The notes: generated by a model from the sequence alone, not told the origin. A stretch of 64,000 nt of DNA from Thermoanaerobaculia bacterium (GCA_963809425.1 CAWEJK010000013.1:49359-113358), one strand, 5' to 3'; numbered from the stretch's first letter, positions 3,851-62,824 are shown. Translations and numbers: made by a program.

Positions 3851-3865
3851 TGGCATGCTGCGTGC
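3851..3865 (+). promoter_or_regulatory. weak sigma-54-type promoter candidate (TGGCAT-N5-GTGC)
   Basis: GG-N10-GC spacing is correct, but the -12 element is GTGC and sits only 14 nt from the GTG start at 3879. Confidence 0.3.
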
Positions 3866-3878
3866 TCTTGGCTAGTTC

Positions 3879-4316
3879 GTGCTGGACAGACTCAACTCTC
3901 TCCTTCGTATCGAACTCGCCGCGGTGGCCGGATACCAGAGGGCCCTGAGCACGCTCAAGAAGAAGGCGGTCGTCGACAGCGACCATCTTCTGAAGCTCGC
4001 GTCCGAGCACCAGCGCACGGTCGCGGTTCTCCAGGGAACCGTCCATGCCCGGGGAGGAGCGCCCGTCGTCCTGGCGGACCCCTGGGAGGACTCGGTTTCC
4101 GCCGCTCTCGACGGCAACGGACACTCGCCCGCGCTGAAGAGCAGGGAGTTCGTGGGCGCGCTTCTCTCGGTCGAGAAGCGCGGTCTCGCCGAGTACGAGG
4201 CCTCCCTGGGCTCGCTCGACGATGACGCCCGGGAGCTCGTCGAGCTCGAGCTGATCCCGCGGCAGCAGAGACACGTCGCGCAGCTCTCCGCCATGCTCGT
4301 CAGCCTCGCGGCGTGA
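3879..4316 (+). CDS. four-helix-bundle, ferritin-like (DUF2383/PA2169-type) protein
   Basis: 145-aa all-helical ORF with a GTG start. The LNSLLRIELAAVAGYQRAL and LLSVEKRGLAEYEASL segments resemble the PA2169/YciE ferritin-like family. Assigned by eye only. Confidence 0.5.
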   Translation: MLDRLNSLLRIELAAVAGYQRALSTLKKKAVVDSDHLLKLASEHQRTVAVLQGTVHARGGAPVVLADPWEDSVSAALDGNGHSPALKSREFVGALLSVEKRGLAEYEASLGSLDDDARELVELELIPRQQRHVAQLSAMLVSLAA

Positions 4317-4329
4317 CCCGCGGCTCGCC

Positions 4330-5043
4330 GTGGAACGAGGTGCGCTCCGTGCCGGTGTGCTAGTTTCGCGGCTCGTCGACATGGACGCAGCGTCGCATCC
4401 CGAACCGGCCGGAGAGTCCGCCCGTACCCTGCGTGCTCTCCGGCATGCCCTCGCCGACCCGCTCTCGGCCGCCGCGCTGAAGCTCGACCTCGTGGAGCGG
4501 CGCATCCAGACGCCGTCCGGTGCCGATCCGTCGTGGATCGTCGAGCGGGTGCGGGCCGCGAAGGCCGATCTGGGCTCCGCGAACCGCCTCCTCGACCTCC
4601 TGCTTCGCCTCGCGGAGATCGTCGGCGAGCGGCCTGAAGAGACGTCTCTCGGCGAGGTCTGCCGCACCGCGGGCGTTCCCCTCCCCGACGGCACGGCGGA
4701 CCTTCCGCGCCTGCCGCTGCGTCACAGGGCGTCGGCCGAGGCGATCCAGAGTGTCGCGTCGTTCGCCACGAGAGGCGACGGCGTCCCTCCGCCGATCGGA
4801 CGAGCGGGACTCGAGAGCGGGCGGGTGACGCTGGTTCTCGAAGGGTCGCGGGTGACAGTCGATGGACGTCCCGAGCGGCTCCTCGATCTCCCTCCCGGGG
4901 TCGAGGGAGCGGAAGCGCTGTTCGTGGCCCGCGCAGCCGTCGAAGCCGACGGCGGTCGCCTGGAGCTGAAAGAGCGCGGCGGGCGCTTCGTGGCGCTCTT
5001 CTCGTGGCCGATCGCGGCTGCCGGTCCGGAGGACGAATCGTGA
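4330..5043 (+). CDS. small cytoplasmic histidine-kinase-like protein
   Basis: 237-aa ORF with no TM segment. H-box-like LRHALADPLSAAALKLDL and a C-terminal ATPase-lid-like GGRLELKERGGRFVALFSWP. GTGA overlap with the downstream response regulator. The start is uncertain (GTG 4330 or ATG 4381). Confidence 0.55.
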   Translation: MERGALRAGVLVSRLVDMDAASHPEPAGESARTLRALRHALADPLSAAALKLDLVERRIQTPSGADPSWIVERVRAAKADLGSANRLLDLLLRLAEIVGERPEETSLGEVCRTAGVPLPDGTADLPRLPLRHRASAEAIQSVASFATRGDGVPPPIGRAGLESGRVTLVLEGSRVTVDGRPERLLDLPPGVEGAEALFVARAAVEADGGRLELKERGGRFVALFSWPIAAAGPEDES

Positions 5044-6446
5044 GGGTCCTCGTGGTGGAGGACGAGCCGGGGGTCCGGGCATCGCTCGTCGACCTCATCC
5101 AGGAGCTCGGATACGAGACATCCGCCGTGGGCTCGGTGGCCGACGCGCGCGCCGCGTTGACCCGTGGAGCTCCGGACGTCTGCATCACGGACCTCGGGCT
5201 GCCGGACGGGAACGGGCTCGACGTCGTGCGCGCCGCGAAGGCGGCTCGGCCGGATTCGGCCGTCCTCGTCCTGACGGGGAAAGGCTCGATCCTGGCCGCA
5301 GTCGAGGCGATGCGGGCCGGCGCGTACGACTTCCTCCTCAAGCCGCTCAAGCCCGCCCTCCTCGCGTCGGCTCTCGGGCGCCTTTCGGAGCATCACGTTT
5401 CACTCGCCGAGGCGCACCCCGAGCCGGCGGCCGCTGGCCGGCTCGGGGAGATGGTCGGCCGATCACCCGCGATGCAGGAGGTCTTCCGTCTGATCGCCCG
5501 CGTCGCGGGGTCCGAAGCGCCCGTGATGATCACCGGGGAGAGCGGTACGGGCAAGGAGGTCGCGGCCCGCACCGTGCACGCCCTCTCGCGCCGCATTCGA
5601 GGACCGTTCGTCGCGGTCAACTGCGGCGCGATCTCGCCGACGCTCGTCGAGAGCGAGCTTTTCGGGCACGAGAAGGGTGCTTTCACCGGGGCGGAGCGGC
5701 GCCGTGCCGGCACCTTCGAGATGGCCCATGGAGGAACTCTCTTCCTGGACGAGGTGACGGAGATGCCGCCCGAGCTGCAGGTGAAGTTCCTTCGTGTCCT
5801 CGACACACGCGCCTTCCGGCGGGTCGGCGGAAACGAGGAGCTGGACGTCGACGTCCGCCTCGTCGCGAGCTCGAACCGCAACCTGGCGGAGGCGGTGAAA
5901 AGCAGGTCGTTCCGACCCGACCTCTTCTATCGGCTGAACGTCTTTCCGCTCGTCATGCCGCCCTTGCGCGAGCGCAAGGTGGATATTCAGGCTCTCGCGA
6001 GCCATTTCCTTTCGGAGGTCGGGGAGAAGGAGCGGCGCGGCATCACGTCGTTCGAGCCCCGTGCGCTCGACGTCCTGGACAGGCACGACTGGCCCGGCAA
6101 CGTGCGCGAGCTCCGGAACGCCGTGCACAGGGCCTATGTCCTGAGCGACCCGCCGGCCATTCGGGCCGAGGCGGTGGAGTCGGTCCTCGGCGCGCCGCGC
6201 CCCGTCGAGCCGCAGCCGGCGGCGGACCAGGCCGGGGAGTCATGGCCCGCCGTGCCGGTGCGCGTCGGAGAGAAGCTGGAGGACGTCGAACGCAAGCTGC
6301 TCATCGCGACACTGGAGGCCGTGAAAGGCGACAGGAAGACGGCGGCCGAGCTCCTCGGCATCAGCCTCAAGACGGTCTACAACCGGCTCAAGCATTACGG
6401 CCTCGACCACCCCGCTCCTCCACGAGGACCAGCTCGAGACGCTTGA
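5040..6446 (+). CDS. sigma-54-dependent response regulator (NtrC family bEBP: REC-AAA+-HTH)
   Basis: REC (VLVVEDEPGVR...DLGLPDGNG), AAA+ Walker A GESGTGKE, ESELFGHEKGAFTGA (GAFTGA loop), C-terminal Fis-type HTH (AAELLGISLKTVYNRLKHYG). GTG at 5040 overlaps the kinase stop. The ORF is open from 5004. Confidence 0.92.
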   Translation: MRVLVVEDEPGVRASLVDLIQELGYETSAVGSVADARAALTRGAPDVCITDLGLPDGNGLDVVRAAKAARPDSAVLVLTGKGSILAAVEAMRAGAYDFLLKPLKPALLASALGRLSEHHVSLAEAHPEPAAAGRLGEMVGRSPAMQEVFRLIARVAGSEAPVMITGESGTGKEVAARTVHALSRRIRGPFVAVNCGAISPTLVESELFGHEKGAFTGAERRRAGTFEMAHGGTLFLDEVTEMPPELQVKFLRVLDTRAFRRVGGNEELDVDVRLVASSNRNLAEAVKSRSFRPDLFYRLNVFPLVMPPLRERKVDIQALASHFLSEVGEKERRGITSFEPRALDVLDRHDWPGNVRELRNAVHRAYVLSDPPAIRAEAVESVLGAPRPVEPQPAADQAGESWPAVPVRVGEKLEDVERKLLIATLEAVKGDRKTAAELLGISLKTVYNRLKHYGLDHPAPPRGPARDA

Positions 6447-8084: not shown

Positions 8085-8229
8085 CAACGTGGCGGGCGAA
8101 GGCGAACCGCCGGCGGGTCGCCCTGAAGGCCGCCCACGAGACGTCGGCACGTTTTTCCCGGGAAACCGGTAAAGCGTGCCGGCTCGCGCGAGCGCCCGCA
8201 CCGATCACGCGGCCGCGACTGCCTCACGT

Positions 8230-8244
8230 CGGCACGATGTTTGC
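8230..8244 (+). promoter_or_regulatory. sigma-54-type promoter (cGGCACG-atgt-TTGC)
   Basis: GG (8231-32), N10, GC (8243-44). 94 nt upstream of ATG 8338. Confidence 0.6.
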
Positions 8245-8337: not shown

Positions 8338-8556
8338 ATGGACAGGTTCAAAGGTGTCGCTCTCGTCCTCATCGTCGCGGGCGTCCTCGCGCTCCTGTAC
8401 GGCGGCTTCACCTACACGAAGGACACGCATCGAACGAAGATCGGACCGATCGAGTTTGCGGTCAAGGAGAAGGAGACCGTCAACGTGCCGGTGTGGGCCG
8501 GCGTGGCGGCGATCGTCGTCGGCGGGGTCCTGCTCTTCGCCCGCACGAAGAAGTAG
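8338..8556 (+). CDS. small two-TM membrane protein
   Basis: 72-aa product MDRFKGVALVLIVAGVLALLYGG...VPVWAGVAAIVVGGVLLFARTKK. SD AAGGAGG at 8324-8330. Sigma-54-type promoter at 8230-8244. Confidence 0.65.
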   Translation: MDRFKGVALVLIVAGVLALLYGGFTYTKDTHRTKIGPIEFAVKEKETVNVPVWAGVAAIVVGGVLLFARTKK

Positions 8557-8634: not shown

Positions 8635-9126
8635 ATGACCACGCACCATTTCAGGGCTCTCTTTCCGGGCGTCGTCGCCGCCACCGCGCTCGCGCTGGCC
8701 GTGAGCGCGGGCGCCCAGACGCCTCCGCCCGCCGGGTCCACCCCGGCCGCCAAGAGCCCTCAGGCGGCCTCCACGACCGGCCACCACAAGGCCGGTGCCG
8801 CGAAGGCCACGCACGCCGCCGACATGAAGGCGGAGTGCGAGGCGATGATGGCCAAGAAGCACGAGATGCACGCCAAGCTCCAGGCGATGGACGCGACTCT
8901 GGACAAGCTCGTGGCCGAGATGAACGCCGCGAAGGGGTCCAAAGAGGTCGACGCCATGGAGAAGCCGATGGCGGCCGTCATCAACGAGCTCGTCGCCCAG
9001 CGCAAGGCCTCCCGCTCGATGATGATGGAGATGCAACACGGGACGATGGCGCACACGGCCCATCACATGCACATGCACGGCGCGCAGGGGGCGATGGAGT
9101 GCCCGATGATGAAGGAGACACCATGA
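8635..9126 (+). CDS. secreted His/Met-rich helical protein (putative periplasmic metal-binding)
   Basis: 163-aa ORF with a signal peptide (ALFPGVVAATALALAVSAGAQ). C-terminus MMMEMQHGTMAHTAHHMHMHGAQGAMECPMMKE. No family recognised. Confidence 0.65.
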   Translation: MTTHHFRALFPGVVAATALALAVSAGAQTPPPAGSTPAAKSPQAASTTGHHKAGAAKATHAADMKAECEAMMAKKHEMHAKLQAMDATLDKLVAEMNAAKGSKEVDAMEKPMAAVINELVAQRKASRSMMMEMQHGTMAHTAHHMHMHGAQGAMECPMMKETP

Positions 9127-9326
9127 GACAGCAGGAAGTCGACGGGAAAGTGAAGAAGGCCAAGGGGAAGGTGAAAGAAGCCGTCGGGATCCTCTCGGGC
9201 AACAAGAAGATGGAGCAGGAGGGTTCCCTCCAGCGCGCCGCGGGCACGGTCGAGGAGGGTCTCGGAAAGGCGCGCCGCAAAGTCGGCGAGGCCCTGACGA
9301 GTCTCGGCAACGCCATCAAGAAATAG
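9123..9326 (+). CDS. CsbD-family stress protein
   Basis: 67 aa, MRQQEVDGKVKKAKGKVKEAVGILSGNKKMEQEGSLQRAAGTVEEGLGKARRKVGEAL, a typical CsbD repeat. ATGA overlap with the upstream gene. Confidence 0.85.
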   Translation: MRQQEVDGKVKKAKGKVKEAVGILSGNKKMEQEGSLQRAAGTVEEGLGKARRKVGEALTSLGNAIKK

Positions 9327-10997: not shown

Positions 10998-11012
10998 GCA
11001 AAGGCGAAGCCA
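10998..11012 (-). promoter_or_regulatory. sigma-54-type promoter (TGGCTT-cgcct-TTGC)
   Basis: Read on the minus strand. The -12 GC is 26 nt from ATG 10972, with GAAGGAG in between. Confidence 0.6.
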
Positions 11013-11015: not shown

Positions 11016-11030
11016 TGGAAAGTTATTCCA
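11016..11030. promoter_or_regulatory. inverted repeat TGGAA-agtta-TTCCA between two divergent sigma-54 promoters
   Basis: Located between the 10998-11012 (-) and 11094-11108 (+) elements. Confidence 0.3.
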
Positions 11031-11093
11031 TGCCGCGGGCGCCTGCACTCTCCCCCGCTCGGTCAGGCGAGCCCTGAAACAGCCCGCGCACTC

Positions 11094-11108
11094 TGGCAGG
11101 GGAATTGC
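11094..11108 (+). promoter_or_regulatory. sigma-54-type promoter (TGGCAG-gggaa-TTGC)
   Basis: The -12 GC is 30 nt from GTG 11138, with AGGAG in between. Confidence 0.7.
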
Positions 11109-11137: not shown

Positions 11138-11683
11138 GTGAAAAAGAACTTTGTTCCAATCCTCGCAGCGGCCCTCTCCCTCACGTGGCTTCTCACCGCG
11201 TCGCCGGCGAGTGCGGCGGGCGAGCGCGAGACGGAGGTCTCCGAGGCGCTCAATGCCACCTCCGTCAGGGCCAAGCTGATCGAAAAGCTCGGCGTCGACG
11301 CCCTTCGCATCAAGGTCTCCGTCTCCGGAGAGACGGCAACCCTGACAGGCGAGGTCGCGAAGTCACCCAGCCAGGGGCTCGCCGAGCAGGTCGCCCTGTC
11401 GGTCGAGGGGATCAAGAAGGTCGACAACAAGGTGACGGTCAAGGACGCCTCTGGTCCGGTGGCCGCCAGCGAAGCCTCGGTGAAGAACGTGGCCCTCGAA
11501 CTGAAGGTCAAGAGCATCCTTCTGGCCGAGATCGGAAAGAACGCGCTCAAGATCGAGGTCGAGGTCGTCGACGGAGTCGTCAGCCTCCGCGGCAAGCTCG
11601 ACAACCCCGATGTCTCCAGGGCCGCAATCGAGAAGACCCGTTCGATCCACGGCGTCAAGAAGGTCATCAACCTTCTCGGCTGA
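11138..11683 (+). CDS. BON-domain protein (OsmY-like, two BON domains)
   Basis: Signal peptide plus two BON repeats (LGVDALRIKVSVSGETATLTGEV...; GKNALKIEVEVVDGVVSLRGKL...). GTG 11138 follows AGGAG at 11124-11128. The ORF is open from 11105. Confidence 0.85.
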   Translation: MKKNFVPILAAALSLTWLLTASPASAAGERETEVSEALNATSVRAKLIEKLGVDALRIKVSVSGETATLTGEVAKSPSQGLAEQVALSVEGIKKVDNKVTVKDASGPVAASEASVKNVALELKVKSILLAEIGKNALKIEVEVVDGVVSLRGKLDNPDVSRAAIEKTRSIHGVKKVINLLG

Positions 11684-11770: not shown

Positions 11771-12445
11771 ATGAAAAAGCTGATGACCTGTTTGGCCCTC
11801 GGCGCGTTCGCGACGCTCGTCGGAGTCGCATCCGCGCCCGTCGCATCCGCGCAGACCGAAAAGGAAAACTCGACATTCACCGTGGCGGAGCCGCTCGACG
11901 TCGGGAGCTTCACTCTGCAGCCCGGAACGTACCTCATCAAGGTCGTGGCGCTCACCTCCGACCGCAACGTGATTCAGGTGACGAACCCGGAACAGACGAA
12001 GGTCTTCGCGAACGTCCTCGCGACGCCGCACCCGGTCCGGCCGGGAGAGGAGATCCCCGCGAGCCGCTACACCTACTACGCGACCGAACCGGGCCAGCAC
12101 AGGGCGCTTCGGACGTGGTTCGCGCGCGACACGGCGAACGGCCAGGACATCGTCTATCACAAACAGCGCGCCATGCAGCTCGCCGCGGTCGCCAAGGAGC
12201 CCGTGATCGCGATTCCTGACGCCGTGACGGAGCCGGAATACAAGACCGCGACCCTCACGGTCGTGACGCCGGATCAGAGCATGAAGCCGTACGAAGAGCC
12301 GGCGCCTGCCGCTGTCGTGGCGGAGGCCCGTCCCGCCAAGGAGCTGCCGGCGACCGCGAGCCACGTTCCGCTCTTCGCGGCGCTCGGGCTCCTGTCTCTG
12401 GGCGGCGCTTTCGGACTTCGCGCTCTCACGAACCGGGCGGCGTGA
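11771..12445 (+). CDS. secreted protein with C-terminal sortase sorting signal (LPATAS + TM + basic tail)
   Basis: 224-aa ORF with a signal peptide. It ends KELPATASHVPLFAALGLLSLGGAFGLRALTNRAA. GTGA overlap with the sortase gene. Confidence 0.75.
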   Translation: MKKLMTCLALGAFATLVGVASAPVASAQTEKENSTFTVAEPLDVGSFTLQPGTYLIKVVALTSDRNVIQVTNPEQTKVFANVLATPHPVRPGEEIPASRYTYYATEPGQHRALRTWFARDTANGQDIVYHKQRAMQLAAVAKEPVIAIPDAVTEPEYKTATLTVVTPDQSMKPYEEPAPAAVVAEARPAKELPATASHVPLFAALGLLSLGGAFGLRALTNRAA

Positions 12446-13071
12446 CAGGGTCGCACCTCGTGCGCTGGTTCCGCCGGGCCGAGATCGCCCTCTGCGTGAT
12501 CGGGGTCTCGCTCCTCGGCGGAGCCCTTGGTTCGGTCGTCGGCACTTTGGACTACCAGGCGCGCCAGGGGCGCGCCTTTTCCGACATGGAGCGGGGTGCG
12601 GCCGCGTCGACGCCCGGTCCCGAATCTCCGTCGGCGTCGGCGTCCTCCGTACCGAACACGCGTTCTCTCGACGCCGATCCGCTCGTCCTCGGCCGGATCG
12701 AGATCCCGCGGATCGGCGTCTCCGCGATCGTGCGGGAGGGCGACGACGACACGACGCTCTCCATCGCGGTGGGACACATTCCCGGGACGGCGCGGCCCGG
12801 CGAGCTCGGCAACATGGCGCTCGCGGGGCATCGCGATTCTTTCTTCCGCGCGCTGCGGCACATCCAGGTCCGCGACACGATTCGCATCCGCACGGCCGGC
12901 CGCCGCTACGAGTATCGCGTGGACTCGACCGAGGTGGTCGCGCCGGGGGCGATGCGCGTTCTCGATCCGACGAGCGGCGCCTCCCTCACGCTCGTGACGT
13001 GCTATCCGTTCGGTTACCTGGGGCGCGCGCCGGACCGGTTCATCGTGCGCGCCTCGCAGCTCGTGCCCTGA
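12442..13071 (+). CDS. sortase-family transpeptidase
   Basis: 209-aa ORF with an N-terminal TM anchor, catalytic His region LAGHRDSFF, TLxTC motif (SLTLVTCYPF) and a downstream conserved Arg (PDRFIVRA). Confidence 0.85.
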   Translation: MTGSHLVRWFRRAEIALCVIGVSLLGGALGSVVGTLDYQARQGRAFSDMERGAAASTPGPESPSASASSVPNTRSLDADPLVLGRIEIPRIGVSAIVREGDDDTTLSIAVGHIPGTARPGELGNMALAGHRDSFFRALRHIQVRDTIRIRTAGRRYEYRVDSTEVVAPGAMRVLDPTSGASLTLVTCYPFGYLGRAPDRFIVRASQLVP

Positions 13072-13103: not shown

Positions 13104-13118
13104 TGGCCTGGAAATTGC
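13104..13118 (+). promoter_or_regulatory. sigma-54-type promoter (TGGCCT-ggaaa-TTGC)
   Basis: The -12 GC is 29 nt from ATG 13147. Confidence 0.65.
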
Positions 13119-13146: not shown

Positions 13147-14043
13147 ATGATCAATTACCCACGGTCGAGGCGAGCCCATCTCCGCGTGACGCTCCTGGCC
13201 GGCGCGGTCCTGGCGGCATCGCGCGGGAGCGCGCAGGAGACCGGGCCGCCGATCAGCGCGTCGAGCGCGGACGTACCCGCTCCCCACGAAGTGGCCCGGC
13301 CGTCCAGCCCGCCGTCGTTCCCGAAGATGGTGCTCCTCGACACGGGGCACGTCCTCGGGTCGCCGTTCCGCTGGGGAGGCCGCGAGTGGGCTCTGCTGGC
13401 GGCGTCCACGGCGGCGGTCGCGGCGCTGACGCTGGCGGACAGCGCCGTGAGCGACGCGGCGCGCGAACGCGGGTCCACGCTCGGTTTCTTCGGGGACACG
13501 CTCGAGGGGCTCGGCGACGCCCGCTCGTTCGTGCTCCTCGGAGGGTTCTACCTGGCCGGCGCGATCGGACACGACACGAAGGCGAAGAACGTCTTCTTCG
13601 ACGGACTGTCGGCCAGCCTGATCGCGAGCGGGATGCTCACGCCGGTCCTTTCCACGCTCGTCGGGCGCGAGCGGCCGACGGCGGGACAGGGCGAATATGC
13701 GTTCCATCCGTTCGGAGGACGCTCGTTTCCCTCGGGTCACGCGACCCAGGCGTTTGCCGTCGCATCGGTGATCGCGACGTCCTACGACCAGCTCTGGGTG
13801 AAGGTCACGGCGTACGGAGCGGCCGCGGTGACGGCTTACGTTCGCGTCCAGCGGGGCAAGCACTTCGCGTCGGACGTCGTCGCGAGCGCGGCGATCGGCA
13901 CGCTGGTCGGCCGCTCCGTCGTCCACTTCAACCGAAAGCTTCGCTCGGGACAGAAGGAGCCGGAGAGCGCGGGCGCTCGCCTCACGATCCTTCCCGTTCT
14001 GGGCGGCGGCACGTTCGGTTTTTCCGCGAGTCTCGACTTCTGA
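13147..14043 (+). CDS. PAP2-family (acid/lipid) phosphatase
   Basis: 298-aa ORF carrying the PAP2 motifs GRERP, PSGHA and RVQRGKHFASDV. Sigma-54-type promoter at 13104-13118. Confidence 0.85.
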   Translation: MINYPRSRRAHLRVTLLAGAVLAASRGSAQETGPPISASSADVPAPHEVARPSSPPSFPKMVLLDTGHVLGSPFRWGGREWALLAASTAAVAALTLADSAVSDAARERGSTLGFFGDTLEGLGDARSFVLLGGFYLAGAIGHDTKAKNVFFDGLSASLIASGMLTPVLSTLVGRERPTAGQGEYAFHPFGGRSFPSGHATQAFAVASVIATSYDQLWVKVTAYGAAAVTAYVRVQRGKHFASDVVASAAIGTLVGRSVVHFNRKLRSGQKEPESAGARLTILPVLGGGTFGFSASLDF

Positions 14044-14068: not shown

Positions 14069-16085
14069 ATGAGTTTCAAGACTCGACAGCGGTATCACGC
14101 ATCCGGATTCGCGTGGCGCGTCGCGATGACCCTCCTCTCGGGAGCGGCCGCCCTTCAGGCGCGTCCGGCCGTGGGGCAGGACACCGGCCGGTGGGAGGTC
14201 GGTGCCTTCGCGGGCGGTTACTTCGGGAGCCGGACCTTCCGGAACCCGAGCACCGACATCGAGATCGGCACATCGGCCGCGTTCGGCCTGCGTGGAGCCT
14301 TCAGCGTCGATCGCACGTTCAGTCTCGAAGTGACCCTGTCGAGGGCCAGCGCCCGCCTCGACGCGGTCGACCCGTCGACGGGCGCCTCCCTCGCGCCGTC
14401 GGCGCCGATCGACGTGAACACCTACGAGCTCAACGGCCTTTACGGATTCGGCACGGGCCGGATGCGCGGCTACATGGGGCTCGGGGTGGGCGCCATGACG
14501 CTTCACCCGTTCGTCCCGGGCGTCGCGACGAAACCGGACACGCGGTTCGTCGCGAACGTCGCGCTCGGCGCCAAGCTCTACCTGAGCGACCGCCTCGCGC
14601 TCCGGGTCGACGGCCGCTATCGCTGGAGAAGCGCCAGCCCGGGGACCAGCACGGTCGTCTGCGGAAGCATCGGCTGCTACGGCTTCACGACGGACCTCTA
14701 CTCGAGCAGCGAAGTCACTGGCGGGCTCGCGTACCGGTTCGGAGGAGCGCGAATCTGGGATCTCCCGGCCGCTCCGGCGACACCGGGCTCCACCGCCGTC
14801 CTCGCGGCGCCGTCGAGGCGCCCGGCGCCGCCGGAGCGTTTCTTCACGGCCGCGGGCGAGGTCGCCCTGGTGGAATTCCTGCCCTGGGCCTATGACCGGT
14901 ACGTCGCGAAGGACGACTTCGCGTTCATCTCCATCGCGAGCGTGAAGGAGAACTTCAAGGACGGCTTCGGCTACGACCGCGACGACTTCAACACGAACCA
15001 GGCGGCGCACCCGTTCCACGGCAGCCTCTACTTCAACGCCGCGAGGTCGAACGGCTACGGCTACTGGGAATCGGGCGCGTTCACGCTGGCGGGCAGCTTT
15101 CTGTGGGAATGCTGCATGGAAAACACCCAGCCTTCGATCAACGACATCGTAAACACCACGTTCGGAGGCATGTCCCGCGGGCGAGATGGCTCACCGCCTC
15201 GGCGTGATGCTCCGCGACAACCAGGCGACTGGCTTCACGCGCTTCTGGCGCGAGCTTGCCGGCGTGGTCGTGGATCCGATGGGGGGGTTCAACCGGCTCG
15301 TGCACGGAGAGATGACGCGGCAGTTCCCGAACCCCGACGAGCGCTTCCCGAGCCGCTTCAGCGTGGTCGGCGATCTCGGCTACCGGCACATCGGCGGCGG
15401 AGTCGCCGATCCGAACCAGGCCGTCATCTCCGTTTCCGCGGTCTACGGCGACGCGTTCGCCGGTGAGATACGCAAACCGTTCGACACGTTCTGGCTCGAG
15501 GCCGACATCAACACGTCGGGAGGCGTGTCGCGGGTCGAGGGACGGGGAGTCCTGAAGGGGTGGGAGCTGGGCGACCCGGCTGCGCGGGCGCGGCACATCC
15601 TCGGCGTCTTTCAGGAGTACGAGTACTTCAACAACGAGTCCCAGGTCTTCGCCGCGCAGATCTTCAGCGTCGGGCTGCTGTCGCGGTACAACCTTCGGCC
15701 GGACCTCAAGGCCAGCACGGACGTCACCGCGATCGCGTTTCCGCTCGCCGGCATCCGGACGACGGACTTCCTGAACCCGGAGACGGGCCGGACCTACGAC
15801 TACGCGCCCGGCGGCGGGTTCCGCGTTGCCGCCCGTCTCTATCGGAGAGAGTGGGAGATCGTCAGGCTCGGCTACGGCGTCGCATACGCTCGCACCGCGA
15901 ACGGGAGCTCCTCCAGCAGCACGCTGCAGTTCTTCCGCGCCTCGGGGCGGGTCCCGCTCACCCGGTCACTGGGCGCTGGAGCCGGCTACTCGTGGTACAG
16001 CCGCAGGACGACTTACTCCGGCGGCTTCCAGGAAGCTCCCAAGACGCAGTCCGAGTGGCGCGTCTTCGCGAGCTGGAGCCTTTAG
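14069..16085 (+). pseudogene. outer-membrane beta-barrel domain + DUF3943-like protein, one frameshift
   Basis: 14069-~15180 continues in a second frame (15186-16085): ...INDIVNTTFGGMSRG / EMAHRLGVMLRDNQATGF... The shift lies in the GGG run at 15179-15181, so it may be an assembly artefact. Confidence 0.7.
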
Positions 16086-16191
16086 AAAGCCTCTCGTGAG
16101 CCATCTGCCTCGAATCGGCATGTTTTTCTGAGGAAACCGGCAAACGCTTCCGAAGGCGCCCGATCCGCCTCGATCAGGTGCACGCGATGTT

Positions 16192-16207
16192 TGGCACCCT
16201 TGTTGCA
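16192..16207 (+). promoter_or_regulatory. sigma-54 promoter, perfect consensus (TGGCAC-ccttg-TTGCA)
   Basis: Exact match to TGGCAC-N5-TTGCA. The -12 GC (16205-16206) is 67 nt upstream of ATG 16273. Confidence 0.75.
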
Positions 16208-16272: not shown

Positions 16273-19221
16273 ATGAACGGAGGCCACATCTCCTCGAGTC
16301 AAAAGGTCGCCGTGGAAGCGTCCGGCGGCAACCAGGCCATCCGGCACGCGGAAGCTCTGCTCAGGACCGGGGCCCTGCAGAGCGCGATCTTCAACAGCGC
16401 GAACTTCTCGAGCATCGCGACCGACGCGAAGGGCGTCATCCAGATCTTCAACGTCGGCGCCGAGCGGATGCTGGGCTACGCGGCCGCCGACGTCGTGAAC
16501 AAGATCACGCCGGCCGACATCTCGGATCCGCAGGAAGTGATCGCGCGCGCCAAGGCGCTGAGCGTCGAGCTCGGCACGCCGATCACGCCGGGCTTCGAGG
16601 CCCTGGTCTTCAAGGCGTCGCGCGGCATCGAGGACATCTACGAGCTGACCTACATCCGCAAGGACGGGAGCCGGTTCCCCGCGGTCGTGTCCGTCACGGC
16701 GCTGCGCGACGCGCAGGACGCCATCATCGGCTACCTGCTGATCGGCACCGACAACACCGCGCGCAAGCAGGCGGAAGAGGCGCTGCTCAAGGCGGGCGCC
16801 CTGCAGAGCGCGATCTTCAACAGCGCCAACTTCTCGAGCATCGCGACCGACGCGAAGGGCGTCATCCAGATCTTCAACGTCGGCGCCGAGCGGATGCTGG
16901 GCTACGCGGCCGCCGAGGTGATGAACAAGATCACGCCGGCCGACATCTCCGATCCGCAGGAAGTGATCGCGCGCGCCAAGGCGCTGAGCGTCGAGCTCGG
17001 CACGCCGATCGCGCCGGGGTTCGAGGCCCTGGTCTTCAAGGCCTCGCGCGGGATCGAGGACATCTACGAGCTGACCTACATCCGCAAGGACGGGAGCCGC
17101 TTCCCGGCGGTGGTGTCGGTCACGGCGCTGCGCGACGCGCAGGACGCCATCATCGGCTACCTGCTGATCGGCACCGACAACACCGCGCGCAAGCAGGTCG
17201 AAGAGGAGCGGAAGAAGCTCGATCAGCGGCTGCGCGACCAGCACTTCTACACGCGCTCGCTCATCGAATCCAACATCGACGCGCTGATGACCACCGATCC
17301 GCGCGGCATCATCACCGACGTCAACAAGCAGACGGAGGCGCTGACCGGGATGCACGCGCGACGAGCTGATCGGCGCGCCGTTCAAGAACTACTTCACCGA
17401 TCCGGACCGGGCCGAGGCGGGCATCAACCGCGTGCTGAGCGAAGGCAAGGTCACCAACTACGAGCTCACCGCGCGCGCCCGGGACGGCACGCTCACCGTG
17501 GTGTCGTACAACGCGACCACCTTCCACGACCGCGACCGGAGCCTGCAGGGCGTGTTCGCCGCGGCGCGCGACGTGACGGAGCTGAAGCGCTTCGAGCAGA
17601 CGCTGCAGCAGAAGAACGTCGAGCTGGAAGACGCGAGCCGCATGAAGTCCGAGTTCCTCGCCAACATGTCGCACGAGCTGCGGACGCCGCTGAACGCCAT
17701 CATCGGCTTCTCCGAGGTGCTCAGGGACGGCCTGATGGGCGAGCTGACCGATCAGCAGCGCGGGTTCATCGGCGACATCTTCAGCAGCGGCAAGCATCTG
17801 CTCTCGCTGATCAACGACATCCTCGACCTGTCCAAGGTGGAAGCCGGCAAGATGACGCTCGACCTCGAGCCGGTGCAGGTGTCCTCGCTGTTCGCGAACA
17901 GCCTGTCCATCATCAGGGAGAAGGCCGCGGCCCGCCAGCATCCGCCTCGCGGTGGATGCCGCCGAGGAGCTGGGCTCGATTCAGGCGGACGCGCGCAAGG
18001 TCAAGCAGATCGTCTACAACCTGCTCTCCAACGCGGTCAAGTTCACCGGCGAGGGCGGCCACGTGACCCTGCGCGCCGGCCGCGTCCCGCGCGCGCGAGG
18101 TCGGCCAGCTGTCCGGCTCCTGGCCGGGCCGGAGCTTCCCGCTGGCCGAGAACGAGTTCGCGGAGTTTCTCGAGATCAGCGTCACCGACAACGGCATCGG
18201 CATCTCGCCCGAGGAGCTGGAGCGCCTGTTCAAGCCTTTCAGTCAGATCGACAGCGGCCTGGCGCGAAAGTTCGAGGGCACGGGACTCGGCCTGGCCATG
18301 GTCAAGCTCCTCGCCGAGCTGCACGGCGGCACGGTGGCGGTGGAGAGCGCCGTGGGCGAGGGCTCCTGCTTCACGGTCTGGCTGCCGCTCCGGGCGACCG
18401 GGGACGGACGCTCACGCTCGGCCAAGGCGCCGGCCGCTCCACGGATCGAGGCGCCGGCGGGAGCGCGCACCGCGCTGGTGGTGGAAGACGACTTCAAGTC
18501 CGCCGAGCTGATCCGCGTGCAGCTCGAGGCGGAGGGCTTCCAGGTGCTGCACGCCGCCTCCGCCGAGGCCGCGCTGGTCCTCGCGGTGCAGCAGCCGGTC
18601 GTCGCTGATCACCCTCGACATCCTGCTGCCCGACATGGACGGCTGGGAATTCCTCGAGCCGCATCAAGCAGGTGCCGGCGCTCAGGCGCATCCCGGTCGT
18701 GATCATCTCGATCGTGGCCGATCGCAACAAGGGCTTCGCGCTCGGCGCCGCGGCGGTCATGCAGAAGCCGATCTCCCGGCAGGAGCTGTACGAGTCGCTC
18801 GTCGATCTCGGCCTGCTTCCCGTCTCGCCAGGGCCGGCCGCTCAAGGTCCTCGTGGTCGACGACGATCCCAAGGCGGTCGAGCTGATCGCCGTCCGCATC
18901 ACGGGCCTCGCCAGCACCGTGCTGCGCGCCTACGGCGGCCGCGAGGCGATCGAAGCCGCGCGGCGGGAGCTGCCGGACCTGATCGTGCTCGATCTGATGA
19001 TGCCGGACGTGAACGGCTTCGACGTGGTGGAGGCGCTCAACGGACGCCCCGACACGGCGCGGATTCCGATCCTGGTGGTCACCGCCAAGCAGATCACCGC
19101 CGAGGACCGCGCCAGGCTGAACGGCTACGTGACGGCGATCATGGAAAAGGCCGACTTCGACCGCGACCGCTTCACGGCCGAGGTCCGGCGGGCCATGTCG
19201 GGGCGCCAGCTGGCCGCCTGA
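16273..19221 (+). pseudogene. PAS-PAS-PAS-HisKA-HATPase-REC-REC hybrid histidine kinase with ~6 frameshifts
   Basis: Contiguous domains are spread over alternating frames. PAS x2: 16369-17220. Third PAS after the shift near 17350. HisKA ([21 protein letters not shown]). Further shifts near 17935, 18090, 18600, 18660 and 18830. HATPase ([26 protein letters not shown]...[18 protein letters not shown]). Two REC domains. Stop at 19219-19221. Confidence 0.8.
16369..17220 (+). repeat. tandem duplication, 2 x 426 bp (one complete PAS domain each), near-identical
   Basis: 16369-16794 and 16795-17220 encode 142-aa units (GALQSAIFNSANFSSIATDAKGVIQIFNVGAERMLGY...LLIGTDNTARKQ). They differ at only a few nucleotides. 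Confidence 0.9.
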
Positions 19222-19222: not shown

Positions 19223-19595
19223 ATGGCCAAGAGTCCTGATCGTCGAGGACAACCCCGCCAACATGACGCTGGCGGTCTTCCTGCTGCAGTCGGCGGGCCA
19301 CGACGGTGCTCAGCGCCAGCGGATGCCGAGGCCGGGCTGACGCTGGCGCGCGACGAGCAGCCCGACCTGATCCTGATGGACATCCAGCTCCCCGGCATGG
19401 ACGGCCTCGCAGGCCACCGCGCTGCTCAAGAAGGACGATGCGACGCGCGCCATCCCGGTGATCGCCCTGACCGCGCTGGCGATGAAGGGCGACGAGGAGC
19501 GCATTCGAGCCGCGGGCTGCGACGGCTACATCGCCAAGCCGATGCGCTATCAGGAATTTCTCGCGACCGTCGCGGCACAGCTGGCGCGCACATGA
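19223..19595 (+). pseudogene. single-domain response regulator (REC) with ~3 frameshifts
   Basis: The pieces RVLIVEDNPANMTLAVFLLQSAGH / DAEAGLTLARDEQPDLILMDIQLPGMDGLA / TALLKKDDATRAIPVIALTALAMKGDEERIRAAGCDGYIAKP lie in three frames. The terminal TGA overlaps the next ATG (19592-19595). Confidence 0.7.
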
Positions 19596-21643: not shown

Positions 21644-22816
21644 ATGAGCAAGAGTCTTTCCTCCCTCCTCCTCCTCGCCCTCGCTTTTTCCCTCGCGGTA
21701 CCCCCGCGGCGCGCGGACGCAAGCGGCAGCGTCAGCATCTCGTTCTTCTACGACGAGCTGCGCCCTCACGGTGACTGGATCACGGTGAAGAGCTACGGCC
21801 ATTGCTGGCGCCCCCGCGGAATCGATCGGAGCTGGCAACCTTATCTGAACGGGGAGTGGCTCTACACCGAGATCGGCTGGACCTGGGTGTCGAGCGACCC
21901 GTGGGGCGGTGACCCGTACCACTACGGCACGTGGGCCTGGTCGAGCGTCTACGGCTGGGTCTGGATCCCGGGCACCATCTGGGCTCCGGCGTGGGTGACG
22001 TGGTACGTCGGCGACAGCGACATCGGATGGGCGCCGGTCCCGCCTTCGTTCAATGTCGGGATCTCCGGCTACCTCGGGCCCCCGGTGACCGTCTCGCGCT
22101 CGTCGTACATCTTCGTGCCCGCGACGCAGTTCGTCGGCGTGAACGTGGGGACGGTGCGACTCCCCGCGGCACGGAACGCCGCCCTCCTCGCACGTGCCAG
22201 GCCCGTGACACGGTTCGCCGCCTCGGGCGGCGTGCTGACGAGCGGCGGCCCTACGATCGCGCAGGTGGAGCGCGCCACGCAACGGAAGATCGCGAGAGTC
22301 AGTGTCGGGGACGCGCGCACGAAGGCCGTGCCGCTCGCCGACGGGTTCCGGGGCCGGCGGGGCAACGTGATTGCGCCGGCCGCCGAGAGAGCGAAGTTCA
22401 TCGCGCCGCCGCGTGCGCCGAAAGGCGCACGCGAGGCATCGCCCGCGTCGCGGCCGAGGGCGACGGTGAAGCACGAAGGCTCGCCGGCCGCGAAAGAGCG
22501 CGCCGTGCCCCGTGAGCAGACCGCGCCGGCGCCCGTGCGCGTGAAGCCCGCGAATACGCGGAAGGAGCACGCCCGGACGGAGGGGCCTGCGGAGTCGATC
22601 GCGAAGCCGGCCCCTCCCGCGCGCGAGCGGCACGACGCGCCCGCTCCCCGCGTCGAGGGCGTCCGTCCACCGCACGTCGCGGCGCCTGCGAACCAGGCGC
22701 CACCCCCGCAGGCGGCGCCGCAGGGTGAGAAACACGGGCCCGACGCGGCTTCACCTCAGGGCAAGGCTCACGAGCCGAAGGACGAGAAAGGCGGCAAGAA
22801 AGACAAGAAGGACTAA
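21644..22816 (+). CDS. secreted Trp/Tyr-rich protein with Pro/Lys-rich C-terminal tail
   Basis: ATG 21644 follows AAGGAG. Signal peptide MSKSLSSLLLLALAFSLA. W-rich core (GDWITVKSYGHCWRP...WTWVSSDPWGGDPYHYGTWAWSSVYGWVWIPGTIWAPAWVTWY). Low-complexity tail ending KDEKGGKKDKKD. It resembles DUF6600-like proteins, by eye only. Confidence 0.7.
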   Translation: MSKSLSSLLLLALAFSLAVPPRRADASGSVSISFFYDELRPHGDWITVKSYGHCWRPRGIDRSWQPYLNGEWLYTEIGWTWVSSDPWGGDPYHYGTWAWSSVYGWVWIPGTIWAPAWVTWYVGDSDIGWAPVPPSFNVGISGYLGPPVTVSRSSYIFVPATQFVGVNVGTVRLPAARNAALLARARPVTRFAASGGVLTSGGPTIAQVERATQRKIARVSVGDARTKAVPLADGFRGRRGNVIAPAAERAKFIAPPRAPKGAREASPASRPRATVKHEGSPAAKERAVPREQTAPAPVRVKPANTRKEHARTEGPAESIAKPAPPARERHDAPAPRVEGVRPPHVAAPANQAPPPQAAPQGEKHGPDAASPQGKAHEPKDEKGGKKDKKD

Positions 22817-23523: not shown

Positions 23524-23538
23524 GCAAGGGCGCGGCCA
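23524..23538 (-). promoter_or_regulatory. sigma-54-type promoter (TGGCCG-cgccc-TTGC)
   Basis: Read on the minus strand. The -12 GC is 29 nt from ATG 23495, with GGAGG in between. Confidence 0.6.
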
Positions 23539-27011: not shown

Positions 27012-27026
27012 CGGCGCGATCGTTGC
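27012..27026 (+). promoter_or_regulatory. sigma-54-type promoter candidate (cGGCGC-gatcg-TTGC)
   Basis: Correct spacing, and the -12 GC is 29 nt from ATG 27055. The -24 element is GGCGC rather than GGCAC. Confidence 0.45.
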
Positions 27027-36137: not shown

Positions 36138-36214
36138 TGGTCGGGACGGTGGGATTCGAACCCACGACCCCTTGAACCCCATTCAAGTACGCTACCAGGC
36201 TGCGCCACGTCCCG
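36138..36214 (-). tRNA. tRNA-Pro (anticodon GGG)
   Basis: Manual cloverleaf: acceptor CGGGACG/CGTCCCG, D arm GCGC-AGCCTGGTA-GCGT, anticodon arm CTTGA-ATGGGGT-TCAAG, T arm GTGGG-TTCGAAT-CCCAC, discriminator A, encoded CCA. Confidence 0.9.
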
Positions 36215-53363: not shown

Positions 53364-53819
53364 TTGGATTGCGGGCAGCGTAAATGCCACGATGGAGATG
53401 ATCATCGACGCACCCAACGGCTGGACCGTTACGTCCGCGACCTACAGCGGGACCGCAGGACGGTCGCCTTTTTCCGGAACCACGACTGTTTCCTCAGCGC
53501 CCCCGGACCTTGCTCGATTGGCGCCGTGACTGCCGGGTACCAGAAGATCTACCTGACCGCAGGGCCCTTCACGACCGTCGCCTTCCCGGACGCCGCGAAC
53601 ATTTCCGTCACGTTTCTCGTGGGAGGCGCGCCGGGCACGTACACGCTGGGCTTCAAGGGCGGCGGCGGCAACGGTGCGGCGTTCGATTGCCAGGCGGCGC
53701 CGACGACTCTCGCGGTCACGTCGCAGTCGACCCCATTCATTCCTGCCCTGGACGCGAGGGGTGTCATCGTTCTGCTCGCGGCTCTCGCGATCTCGGGCTT
53801 CCATCTTCTCCGGCGGTGA
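53364..53819 (+). pseudogene. fragmentary secreted-protein gene ending in an IPTL-CTERM-like sorting signal
   Basis: The C-terminus PFIPALDARGVIVLLAALAISGFHLLRR resembles an IPTL-CTERM anchor. The N-terminal part reads sensibly only in another frame (IIDAPNGWTVTSATYSGTAG..., 53390-53529). No signal peptide was found. Confidence 0.4.
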
Positions 53820-54044
53820 CGCGCCGCTAATCCGCGGGTTCGGGAGAGCAATGAGACGAGAACGGGGCCGGAATCCGGCCTGTCCAGCGCCTGAACGCAA
53901 GCGTCCGGCCGAATCGCCGCGCCGGTCCGTTTCACGTAACCGATAACTTACTTGATACACAACGTGACCGCCGCAAATGCATGAAGAATCGTCGGTGCAG
54001 CACGGAAGTCCTCGGAGGGATTTCTCGTTACACAGAAGCCGACG

Positions 54045-59149: not shown

Positions 59150-59154
59150 CTCTC

Positions 59155-59418
59155 TCAGGCCGCCTTCTGGCGCACGAACTCGCACAGGGCGCTCACGGAG
59201 GCGAACGCTTTCACGCCCACTTCCTCGTCCTGCACCTTGATTCCGAACTCCTTCTCGACGCCGAGCACGAGCTCGAGGGCGTCGATCGAGTCCAGGCCGA
59301 GGCCGCCGTCCGCGTCCCCGAAAAGCGGCGCGTCGTCGGCGATCGTCGCGGGATCCATTTCGAGCTTGAGCTGCCGAACGATCAGCTCCTTGACTCTCTT
59401 CTTCAGGTCGTCTGACAA
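59155..59418 (-). CDS. acyl carrier protein
   Basis: 87-aa ORF with the phosphopantetheine site LGLDSIDALELV. Confidence 0.9.
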   Translation of the reverse strand: MSDDLKKRVKELIVRQLKLEMDPATIADDAPLFGDADGGLGLDSIDALELVLGVEKEFGIKVQDEEVGVKAFASVSALCEFVRQKAA

Positions 59419-59480
59419 GGACTACTCCCTCCCGGGTTGGCCGGAACCGCGGAGTATACGAGCGCTGGACCCGGCCGGCC

Positions 59481-61320: not shown

Positions 61321-62243
61321 GCCGCGACCCCCGACTTCTCTTCTTCTTTCTTCCCCTTCAAAGAAATCTTCTCTTCTTCTTTCTCTTTCTTTCTTTCCAA
61401 AGAAATCCCCTCTTCGGCCCTCGCCGACGAAATCGGGGCGAACGTCCATCGCTTCAGGAACCGCGCCCAACGGCCCTCGGTCCGCGTTCGCCCCGCGAAG
61501 TGGACGAGACTCTGAACGGGCGACAGCCCGGGCATCGCGGGGTGGTCCGGGTCGAGCTCCCAGGGATGCGCGTAGAGGACCGGCGGAGCCCCGGCGGCGA
61601 GAGACCGCTCGATCGCCGCCGCGACGCGGCTCTCGCGCGTCAGGCGAGCGCAGACGCCGCCGCCCCAGATCGCGCGAAAGCCGAAGAACGTGCCCATGAG
61701 CGGCGGGACTTCCAGAATCGGGCCCGATCCGGTTTCGAGCGTCACGGGGCGCGTCGGATTCGACGGGTCCCCGACCGGCGGCGCCGTCGTGAGCGAGGAG
61801 TCGAGCGTGAAGCGTTCCTCGGCGAGAACCGAGAACGCGGCGTTGTCGGCTCGAAGCATCGACCACTCCGGGGCGCGGAAGGACGTCACGGGCTTCCCGA
61901 CGATCTCCTGAAGCGTGTCGCGGCTCTTCCGGAGGTCCTCCCGAAACTCGGGCAGCGTCATCTCGAACACCCGGCGGTGGACGTCGCCGTGGCAGCCGAC
62001 CTCGTGCCCGGCGTCGGCGATACGCCGCACGAGCGACGGGTTCTGCCGCGCGATCCAGCCGAGGGTGAAGAACGTCGCCGTGGAGCCGGTCCCGTCGAGG
62101 AGCGCGAGCAGGCGCTCGACGCCGGCGTGAACGCGCTTTCCCCGGCCGGCCCACGTGGCCGGGTCCGCGTAGAGCGGATTCCCGCAGACGTGGAACCATT
62201 CCTCCACGTCGACGGTCAGGATCGGGACAACGCTCGCGCTCAC
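61317..62243 (-). CDS. polysaccharide deacetylase (DUF3473 / PEP-CTERM-locus subtype) with odd Lys/Glu-rich tail
   Basis: 308-aa ORF with LTVDVEEWFH, TFFTLGWIA and HGDVHRRV motifs. The tail ISLERKKEKEEEKISLKGKKEEEKS is encoded by the AT-rich repeat motif. Confidence 0.85.
   Translation of the reverse strand: MSASVVPILTVDVEEWFHVCGNPLYADPATWAGRGKRVHAGVERLLALLDGTGSTATFFTLGWIARQNPSLVRRIADAGHEVGCHGDVHRRVFEMTLPEFREDLRKSRDTLQEIVGKPVTSFRAPEWSMLRADNAAFSVLAEERFTLDSSLTTAPPVGDPSNPTRPVTLETGSGPILEVPPLMGTFFGFRAIWGGGVCARLTRESRVAAAIERSLAAGAPPVLYAHPWELDPDHPAMPGLSPVQSLVHFAGRTRTEGRWARFLKRWTFAPISSARAEEGISLERKKEKEEEKISLKGKKEEEKSGVAA
61355..61415. repeat. two direct copies of the AT-rich motif in the tail of the deacetylase gene
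   Basis: ccttcaaagaaatcttctcttct (61355-61377) and tccaaagaaatcccctcttc (61396-61415), within a polypyrimidine tract. Confidence 0.8.
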
Positions 62244-62367
62244 CTCCGCGGATTATGCCGCTCGCCCCGGCGATCACGGCGCGCGTCTCGCCCTCCGATT
62301 CGAAGTTGGAGAATGAAAGACGGGAGAACGCCGGTCGGCGTTCTCCCGTCCGTGTCGCCGCGCGGGT

Positions 62368-62748
62368 CTACGGCCTCGCGCCGGGATTACCCGACGGCGA
62401 CGTTGCCGGCGCCGAGATCAGCTCGACGGTCAACGACTTCGTGCTTCCGCTTTTCTGCTCCGTCACCTTCACGCGCGATCCGACCGCGACGGAAGGATCG
62501 ATGTTCACGGTCGTGCCTTTCTGATCGAGCTTGAAGGTCAGCGTCTTGTTGTCGATCGAGGTGAGGACCAGCCTCTTGTTCGCCTCGAACTCCTTGACGG
62601 TGCCCTCCGTTGTTTTCATCTCCCCGGTGGGATCGGCGGTGGAGACTTTCATCTCGTCTCCGGCAGGCTTCGCGTACTTCTGTTCCGCGAGGACGGGACC
62701 TCCGAAGAGAAGAGCCGTGGACAGAGCTGCAATCACGCGTCTATTCAT
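62368..62748 (-). CDS. hypothetical secreted 126-aa protein
   Basis: ATG 62748 follows GGGAGG. Signal peptide MNRRVIAALSTALLFGGPVLA. Beta-rich. Sigma-54-type promoter at 62810-62824. Confidence 0.6.
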   Translation of the reverse strand: MNRRVIAALSTALLFGGPVLAEQKYAKPAGDEMKVSTADPTGEMKTTEGTVKEFEANKRLVLTSIDNKTLTFKLDQKGTTVNIDPSVAVGSRVKVTEQKSGSTKSLTVELISAPATSPSGNPGARP

Positions 62749-62809
62749 AAAACCTCCCTGCAACATTTCCCGTGACCGCGGTGCAAGATGCGGCCACACC
62801 CTCGGCAAC

Positions 62810-62824
62810 GCAATCGCCGTGCCC
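62810..62824 (-). promoter_or_regulatory. sigma-54-type promoter (gGGCACG-gcga-TTGC)
   Basis: Read on the minus strand, in the GT2/secreted-protein intergenic region. 62 nt upstream of ATG 62748. Confidence 0.55.

Follow-up and report, generated by a model that had tools for sequence, protein, structure and literature searches.

The question raised by a 64,000-nucleotide (nt) stretch of DNA from an uncultured Thermoanaerobaculia bacterium (GCA_963809425.1, CAWEJK010000013.1:49359-113358; hereafter the window) is whether nine GG-N10-GC elements, mostly found in front of envelope and general-stress-type genes, are promoters for sigma-54 (RpoN), and which activators would control them. Sigma-54-type promoters had been proposed at these nine places in an earlier note made from the sequence alone. 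Observed here were the sequence itself, its statistics and conservation, and rpoN and activator genes in the genome; on this basis, the nine elements are probably functional RpoN promoters, which together would form a multi-activator stress and envelope island transcribed with minimal or no leaders. The assignment of the elements to sigma-54 is itself well supported. The window corresponds to C13:49359-113358 in a 13-contig, 3.52-Mb assembly with 69% G+C (genome G000). Genes were called using a purpose-written codon-usage caller, giving 3,133 genes (88% coding), and key genes were checked with Pfam and NCBIfam.

All nine elements were recovered at the coordinates and on the strands previously proposed, each lying in intergenic DNA and aimed at the adjoining gene, with GG and GC separated by exactly 10 nt in 9 of 9 cases. 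Scores were obtained using a weight matrix built from the genome's own gene-facing seed sites (n = 60), as well as a second version trained only outside the window. The nine sites scored 11.9–16.4 bits with the former and 11.5–15.7 bits with the latter, and such scores occur in coding DNA at a rate of 0–0.019 per kb per strand. Distances count the nucleotides that separate the start codon from the C of the −12 GC. Five sites were expected to lie 26–30 nt from their genes with a Shine–Dalgarno (SD) sequence in between, a geometry that holds at 25–29 nt: these are the predicted promoters of an Omp85-like gene (10998..11012, minus strand; 13.2 bits; 25 nt to ATG, SD AAGGAG), of an operon for a BON protein, a 224-aa protein and a sortase (11094..11108, plus strand; 14.9 bits; 29 nt to the start), of genes for PAP2 and an outer-membrane protein (OMP) beta-barrel/DUF3943 (13104..13118, plus strand; 14.8 bits; 28 nt to the ATG at 13147), of a DUF2959 lipoprotein gene (23524..23538, minus strand; 11.9 bits; 28 nt to ATG) and of a gene for a PKD-domain secreted protein (27012..27026, plus strand; 14.5 bits; 28 nt to ATG). 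The predicted promoter of an operon for a ferritin-like protein, a kinase-like protein (mini-kinase) and an activator (3851..3865, plus strand) scored 14.7 bits (14.9 bits when trained outside) and lies 13 nt from the GTG at 3879, with no SD sequence. Longer distances were seen for a small membrane/His-Met-rich/CsbD operon (8230..8244, plus strand; 16.4 bits; 93 nt to the start), for a PAS histidine kinase cascade (16192..16206, plus strand; 15.0 bits; 66 nt), where the claim of a perfect consensus was borne out by zero mismatches, and for a gene encoding a 126-aa secreted protein (62810..62824, minus strand; 16.1 bits, 15.5 outside-trained; 61 nt). The last site lies inside a co-directional gene row, directly after a glycosyltransferase family 2 (GT2) gene (63556-62840). 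Against the extended consensus YTGGCACGrNNNTTGCW, the weakest of the nine were 23524 and 10998. No sigma-70 consensus promoter overlapped the sites in the part of the window checked (3.6–17 kb).

Counting the bare pattern was uninformative: TGGCAC-N5-TTGC with up to two mismatches matched 43 times in the window and 40.7 ± 6.3 times in shuffled sequence (no enrichment), and because this count sits at the chance level, it is no evidence alone. Genome-wide, however, stricter versions showed a clear dependence on orientation. The 50 occurrences of TGGC-N7-TTGC comprised 26 that were intergenic and gene-facing, 4 facing away and 20 in coding sequence, which makes up 7.5-fold more DNA, and GGC-N7-TTGC gave 82 gene-facing versus 30 facing away. 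Controls with altered spacing showed no such bias (25 versus 22 for N6 and 28 versus 29 for N8). Among the 60 gene-facing seeds, the positions left unfixed showed Y at −26 and A-C-G after GGC, thus recovering the classical YTGGCACG-N4-TTGC consensus, with an extended form YGGCACG-N4-TTGC(G/T). At a threshold of 13 bits, the matrix returned 50 sites that face a gene, 6 that face away and 18 inside coding DNA, so that the density inside genes, which the earlier note had singled out as a check, was far below that of gene-facing intergenic DNA. The window holds 8 of these 50 matches, with 0.9 expected (P about 5e-6), and seven sites fall within 25 kb at 3–28 kb, with 0.36–0.45 expected (P about 1e-7). 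No other 25 kb of the genome reaches this density at ≥13 bits, and at ≥12 bits the stretch shares first place; its only competitor is a second island at C9:95-104 kb. That island (C9:95000-104800) carries 7–9 predicted promoters in about 9 kb, in front of genes for ElaB-like, YtxH-like and DUF5670 proteins, a desaturase, a CHASE3-type kinase and a REC protein, and adjoins its own REC-AAA-HTH activator gene (C9:103261-104724).

The strongest evidence for the predicted promoters is their conservation despite scrambled gene order. Close relatives were taken from among the roughly 25 genomes of the same genus; the island is rearranged in them, and the orthologues nonetheless retain their own sigma-54 promoter. 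For BON, the promoter was present in 5 of 5 orthologous loci at 23–29 nt from the start, although its spacer is not constant, that of G021 being different; for the ferritin-like gene it was present in 3 of 3, with the GC 12–13 nt ahead of GTG. A sigma-54 site accompanied DUF2959 in all 6 full-length orthologous loci (11.0–14.8 bits) and PAP2 in all 5 true orthologues (61–79% identity; 11.7–16.8 bits), whereas that of the Omp85-like gene was kept in 4 of 7 loci (G012, G015, G003 and G017) and altered in G020, G001 and G021. The PKD gene had its promoter in 13 further loci (55–79% protein identity), in which GGC and TTGC were invariant while spacer and leader varied, the GC lying 23–27 nt ahead of ATG in the 11 loci where ATG was read. 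In relatives, the CsbD, His/Met-rich and small membrane genes each have an individual sigma-54 promoter, and syntenic regions are equally crowded (e.g. 13 sites of ≥11.5 bits in 34 kb of G003). Beyond the genus, csbD was found in 30 of 60 further genomes of the class, and a sense-strand site of ≥11.5 bits lay within 300 nt in 12 of the 30, often 25–31 nt from ATG and covering families f1, f2, f3, f5 and f13; the antisense-strand control gave 3 of 30, some of which resembled genuine divergent promoters. That the stress and envelope theme reaches across the class is thus supported at the level of predicted promoters.

As the earlier note had asked, rpoN and sigma-54 activator genes (bacterial enhancer-binding proteins, bEBPs) were sought in the genome. 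One rpoN gene was identified at C2:225011-226651 (PF04552, E = 2e-64; TIGR02395, 403 bits versus a cut-off of 277), together with about 22 full sigma-54 activators with strong PF00158 matches. The activator at 5040-6446 is indeed the sole one in the window; by Pfam it comprises REC, Sigma54_activat and HTH_8 domains, and it carries GESGTGK (Walker A), GAFTGA at residue 213 and DEV (Walker B). All 22 activators have HTH_8, except that at C13:22579-24228, which has an HTH-like C-terminus and GAYTGS. Comparison of PF00158 and PF02954 positions revealed no activator without an HTH among the 22, although one could be missing from a genome that is 88.5% complete. A PspF-like candidate, suggested by a short match at C12:42 kb, was rejected as a frameshift-split GAF-AAA-HTH gene beside amtB-glnK. 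The other sigma factors encoded are RpoD, about 19 of the extracytoplasmic function (ECF) type and one 283-aa RpoS/group-2-like protein adjoining dnaK and hspR; because the latter is also encoded, a role for sigma-54 as the sole stress sigma factor is unsupported. An ECF-type sigma factor of 427 aa with a long C-terminal extension lies in the window just upstream of the island (368-1651, minus strand; Sigma70_r2 at 1415-1591).

The distance from promoter to gene was then surveyed for 64 gene-facing sites of ≥12 bits across the genome. Eleven sites had the GC 12–16 nt from the start, 10 of them without an SD-like motif, and none fell at 17–21 nt; a longer class of 15 sites at 22–29 nt had SD sequences in 14 cases, and the remainder formed a tail reaching 160 nt. 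The short class includes C2:183365, C9:237048, C13:203150, C6:152453, C7:170149, C9:103184, C5:222979 and C13:288760, with ATG or GTG starts. For this class, there was no downstream, SD-bearing start that would preserve signal peptides or conserved N-termini, and site 3851, which belongs to it, has no alternative start with an SD. Site 3851 is a candidate for leaderless expression, because its GC lies only 13 nt before the GTG and no SD is present. Independently of sigma-54 sites, TANNNT boxes across the genome peak 4–11 nt ahead of starts (about 80 of 400 occurrences, versus about 10 per 4-nt bin elsewhere), a signature of leaderless mRNAs from −10-type promoters, which suggests that such expression is common here. 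Leaderless expression thus seems common in this genome, with sigma-54 promoters apparently taking part. A literature search returned no paper describing sigma-54 leaderless transcripts.

The activator-binding enhancer of a sigma-54 promoter usually lies more than 50 nt upstream. Candidate upstream elements were found for 3851, 8230, 16192 and 27012 and not for the other five sites. A perfect palindrome, TGCATTCA-N5-TGAATGCA, at 3797..3817, about 45 nt upstream of the −24 GG of 3851, is a candidate autoregulatory site for the activator; it is the genome's only copy (≤4 mismatches) beside a sigma-54 site of ≥14 bits and is absent from the other window promoters. A 37-nt candidate enhancer, CGGCACG-TTTTTCCCGGGAAACCGGTAAAG-CGTGCCG, occupies 8145..8181 (plus strand), its centre about 68 nt upstream of the −24 GG of 8230, and a second copy, CGGCATG-TTTTTCTGAGGAAACCGGCAAA-CGCTTCCG, lies upstream of 16192 (16116..16152, plus strand). 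The element, whose inner part reads TTTTTCC..GGAAA, is common only to these two places within the genome; it recurs in G003 and G017, where it lies 60–90 nt ahead of sigma-54 promoters that serve other genes. The 14 PKD orthologue promoters (L124-L141) share a further set of blocks between −100 and −10 from the GG, namely CGCCACTCC..GGGGAC, which directly abuts the −24 element, and, farther out, GTGGGAAAC, GTCATCTT and GAAGTGTAAC at about −45, −78 and −95, respectively. The PKD blocks suggest a gene-specific activator site that would be unusually near the promoter. No common enhancer emerged from shared k-mers or an all-versus-all blastn of 93 promoter upstream regions, which gave short matches at the chance level. 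The TTTCC/GGAAA dyad showed no general enrichment, being specific to 8230 and 16192, and a loose scan for CGGCACG-N20-27-CGTGCCG returned noise only, the pattern being too permissive. Three distinct upstream elements point to several activators rather than one master.

Several points weigh against the interpretation of the nine sites as a conserved set of RpoN promoters. Gene starts rest on the home-made caller, the incomplete assembly (88.5%) carries frameshifts, site 23524 is weak, having the lowest score of the nine, and the conservation checks in relatives cover the seven sites other than 16192 and 62810. Because the close relatives share a genus, too little divergence may also explain part of the conservation, an account against which the PKD and csbD sets speak. 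Alternatively, the sites might be chance matches or might serve another factor than sigma-54, for instance a repressor or an ECF sigma factor. This would fit the chance frequency of the loose 15-mer in the window and the number of ECF-type sigma factors in the genome, but we consider it very improbable: the enrichment depends on spacing and orientation and returns the extended sigma-54 consensus, the motif is asymmetric and sits at fixed distances from start codons, and orthologue conservation falls exactly on GG and GC. ECF promoters, moreover, have a −35/−10 geometry of about 16–17 nt, which does not fit GG-N10-GC.

Further points against it concern activation. Sites 13104, 23524 and 62810 stand directly behind, and abut, an upstream gene, leaving no room for a classical upstream enhancer, and the same applies to several promoter pairs in relatives that lie back to back with 16–30 nt between the GGs. 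Such pairs are the Omp/BON promoters in G003 and the ferritin-gene promoters, with strong partners, in G020, G001 and G021; in G000 itself, pairs are found at 3812(−)/3851(+) in the window and at C9 97674/97710, C12 101775/101802 and C13 203111/203150. The partner of 3851, a weak sigma-54-like site (3812..3830, minus strand; 10.8 bits), faces a glyoxalase-family gene at 2855-3625. Many of the promoters might be opened by an activator that works from solution or binds within adjacent genes, in the manner of FlgR, CtcC and Rrp2; promoters could then stand back to back or right behind a gene because no upstream enhancer would be needed, and the failure to find a general upstream motif would also be explained. 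Such a mechanism nevertheless appears doubtful, given that all 22 activators have HTH_8 or an HTH-like C-terminus, that conserved upstream elements are present at four or more promoters and that enhancers are able to act from inside genes or downstream. Less probable still is that one master, the local NtrC-type activator at 5040-6446, fed by the mini-kinase and a ferritin-like sensor, switches all nine promoters. It is alone in the window, its operon is itself predicted to be sigma-54 driven, and in G020 and G001 the activator operon adjoins the small-membrane/CsbD/His-Met-rich genes, a kept neighbourhood that makes a link to the CsbD group plausible. Yet the candidate palindrome is confined to the activator's own promoter, only 8230 and 16192 share an upstream element, the PKD promoter has different conserved blocks, target genes in relatives lie far from the activator operon or beside a different activator, and 22 activators for roughly 65–90 promoters would lead one to expect small regulons. 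A single master activator for all nine is thus not supported; control divided among several of the 22 activators is most likely.

With the nine elements taken as RpoN promoters under several activators, a mechanism can be outlined. In the sigma-54 model, transcription requires both rpoN and an activator and begins about 11–13 nt past the GC; indirect support for such starts here comes from the SD-less class of sites at 12–16 nt together with the leaderless signature across the genome. To our knowledge, sigma-54 is the only bacterial sigma factor unable to start transcription without an ATP-driven activator, so that target genes can stay fully off until needed. Sigma-54 RNA polymerase would bind the −24 GG and −12 GC as a closed complex, which would wait until ATP hydrolysis by an AAA+ activator opened it, and transcription would then start about 12–14 nt downstream of the GC. 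A start there would leave a minimal leader of 10–17 nt, holding the SD only, at 10998, 11094, 13104, 23524 and 27012, and no leader at 3851. The island would in this way place CsbD, BON/OsmY-like, DUF2959 and ferritin-like proteins under activator control, and the same control would extend to the Omp85-like protein, PAP2, the OMP beta-barrel, the sortase, the PKD protein and the PAS kinase cascade. The local NtrC-type activator probably autoregulates via the palindrome at 3797-3817 and, judging by the conserved neighbourhood, probably also drives the adjacent small-membrane/His-Met/CsbD genes; 8230 and 16192 would come under the shared 37-nt enhancer-like element and the PKD promoter under its own upstream blocks. 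Transcription start sites, activator dependence, activator–promoter pairing and inducing signals are what we infer from these data.

Regarding the genes themselves, the earlier identification of CsbD, BON, PAP2, DUF2959, PKD and the REC-AAA-HTH activator stood, all lying above Pfam family cut-offs; no cupredoxin match to the PKD protein was obtained with Pfam. The operon behind 3851 (3879..6446, plus strand) encodes a four-helix protein (3879-4316) whose label "ferritin-like" has a weak DUF2383 match only (17.3 bits versus a cut-off of 30.8), a degenerate kinase-like protein (4330-5043) and the NtrC-type activator. For the 237-aa mini-kinase, neither Pfam nor NCBIfam gave a family match; the protein combines an H-box-like RHALADPLSA motif with a C-terminal half that is degenerate, and its gene overlaps the activator gene at GTGA. 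Behind 8230 (plus strand) are genes for a small membrane protein (8338-8556), a His/Met-rich protein (8635-9126) and CsbD (9123-9326; Pfam, 48 bits versus a cut-off of 40). The 526-aa Omp85-like protein (10972-9392) gave only sub-threshold BamA/Omp85 NCBIfam matches. The 11094 operon (plus strand) encodes BON (11138-11683), the 224-aa protein (11771-12445) and a sortase (12442-13071), with BON and sortase assigned by Pfam, and site 13104 (plus strand) precedes genes for PAP2 (13147-14043) and the OMP beta-barrel/DUF3943 protein (14069-15466), both by Pfam. Site 16192 precedes a plus-strand row, also assigned by Pfam, of a PAS kinase (16273 to about 18700), a REC protein (18853-19221), a hybrid kinase (19223-21601) and a DUF6600 protein (21644-22816). 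The DUF2959 lipoprotein (23495-22839, minus strand) and the PKD-domain secreted protein (27055-28434, plus strand) were likewise assigned by Pfam, and on the minus strand behind 62810, the 126-aa secreted protein (62748-62368) is followed by a deacetylase, an acyltransferase and a ketoreductase (Pfam for these neighbours).

The CsbD, BON, DUF2959 and ferritin-like genes are each single-copy in the genome, and all lie behind these promoters; since there are no paralogues, the organism's only copies would be the sigma-54-driven ones. Single-copy status, orthologue promoters kept despite rearrangement, and csbD promoters in several families of the class all strengthen the proposal that sigma-54 controls stress-type genes. 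Elsewhere in the genome, the best promoters precede genes for HtrA/DegP, YceI, OMP beta-barrel, TonB-receptor-like, HlyD-type, MoxR, DUF5670, DUF3467 and ElaB-like proteins, for a sphingolipid-type desaturase and for a secreted nuclease. The genome-wide theme of the predicted targets is envelope proteins and small proteins of the general-stress type.

Some other features of the window and genome were also noted. The PAS kinase gene (16273-18702) is broken over at least three frames, with PAS, HisKA (about 17642-17848) and HATPase (about 17988-18083 and 18298-18400) parts; the GAF-AAA-HTH activator gene at C12:41.9-43.5 kb is broken likewise, and assembly indels or pseudogenes would account for both. 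A further sigma-54 site (53894-53912, minus strand; 13.8 bits) points into the 3′ end of a small plus-strand gene (53526-53819) with no obvious open reading frame behind it; this site is perhaps the promoter of an antisense or small RNA, and perhaps spurious. A sigma-54-like site of 11.75 bits (36098-36116, minus strand) lies directly 3′ of a tRNA (36141-36214), with the next gene 289 nt away. The region upstream of this tRNA has a TGGTATAAA −10-like box, and a block resembling it, TGGAATAAC, occurs in the stretch that separates the Omp from the BON promoter (about 11030-11045), being kept in G012 and G015 and absent from G003. An Rfam search for leader RNA elements found none, two tRNAs being the only matches.

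Classical sigma-54/NtrC systems (glnAp2-NtrC and E. coli zraP-zraSR), reportedly reviewed by Bush and Dixon in 2012 (as cited in PMC12754779), resemble the present one in the −24 GG/−12 GC promoter of the form YTGGCACG-N4-TTGCW, in a REC-AAA(GAFTGA)-HTH activator encoded beside a kinase, in candidate dyad sites 45–95 nt upstream and in divergent promoters. They differ from it in that the cargo here is of the general-stress and envelope type, leaders are minimal or absent, many promoters directly abut genes or other promoters, and about ten of them cluster in 25 kb. The mechanism is known, and it is the leader and packing geometry that is unusual. In a general stress regulon, one regulator co-induces many protective genes under many unrelated stresses. 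The sigma-B (Bacillus) and sigma-S (E. coli) regulons (csbD/yjbJ, osmY, elaB) share the CsbD, BON and ElaB-like families with this genome, but the likeness, with DUF2959 also counted, is one of gene content only: the promoters here are −24/−12, not the −35/−10 of the sigma-70-family stress sigma factors, EcfG included, and ATP-dependent activator logic would replace sigma availability. An envelope bias of sigma-54 regulons has already been published, sigma-54 being described as a "central controller of the bacterial exterior" (Francke et al. 2011; PMC3162934), and the targets here, which in the window as well as genome-wide are mostly exported, outer-membrane, lipid-modifying or polysaccharide-related, agree with that picture. 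The same paper has 0 occurrences of Acidobacteria and does not describe CsbD/BON/DUF2959-type stress proteins as sigma-54 targets. PexR of Myxococcus xanthus, which senses through a GAF domain and has ahpC and katB as its targets (PMC12754779), and PspF are likewise sigma-54 activators of stress-defence genes with dyad enhancers (candidates here); the local activator, however, is of the phospho-receiver type, PspF has no regulatory domain, and the cargo is different. The back-to-back pairs, with no room for an upstream enhancer, recall FlgR (Helicobacter), CtcC (Chlamydia) and Rrp2 (Borrelia; PMC1976401), which lack or do not need a DNA-binding domain, whereas every activator found here has an HTH.

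Because related species keep the wiring despite scrambled gene order, sigma-54 and its ATP-driven activators appear to handle much of the stress and envelope protection in this lineage. It is possible, although we advance it only tentatively, that across the class sigma-54 and its panel of activators, in place of a sigma-70-family stress sigma factor, are the main driver of stress and envelope genes, acting through portable promoter–gene cassettes that have minimal or absent leaders and can stand back to back. Leaders this short or absent mean that sigma-54 would make leaderless mRNAs, and packing at 16–30 nt that activation would proceed without a conventional upstream enhancer. If true, a class of abundant, mostly uncultured soil bacteria would have a fourth solution to general stress beside sigma-S, sigma-B and EcfG. 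The probable sigma-54 leaderless transcripts and back-to-back promoters would test ideas on sigma-54 starts and enhancer reach, and the promoter matrix would allow stress regulons to be read directly from the metagenome-assembled genomes of this lineage.

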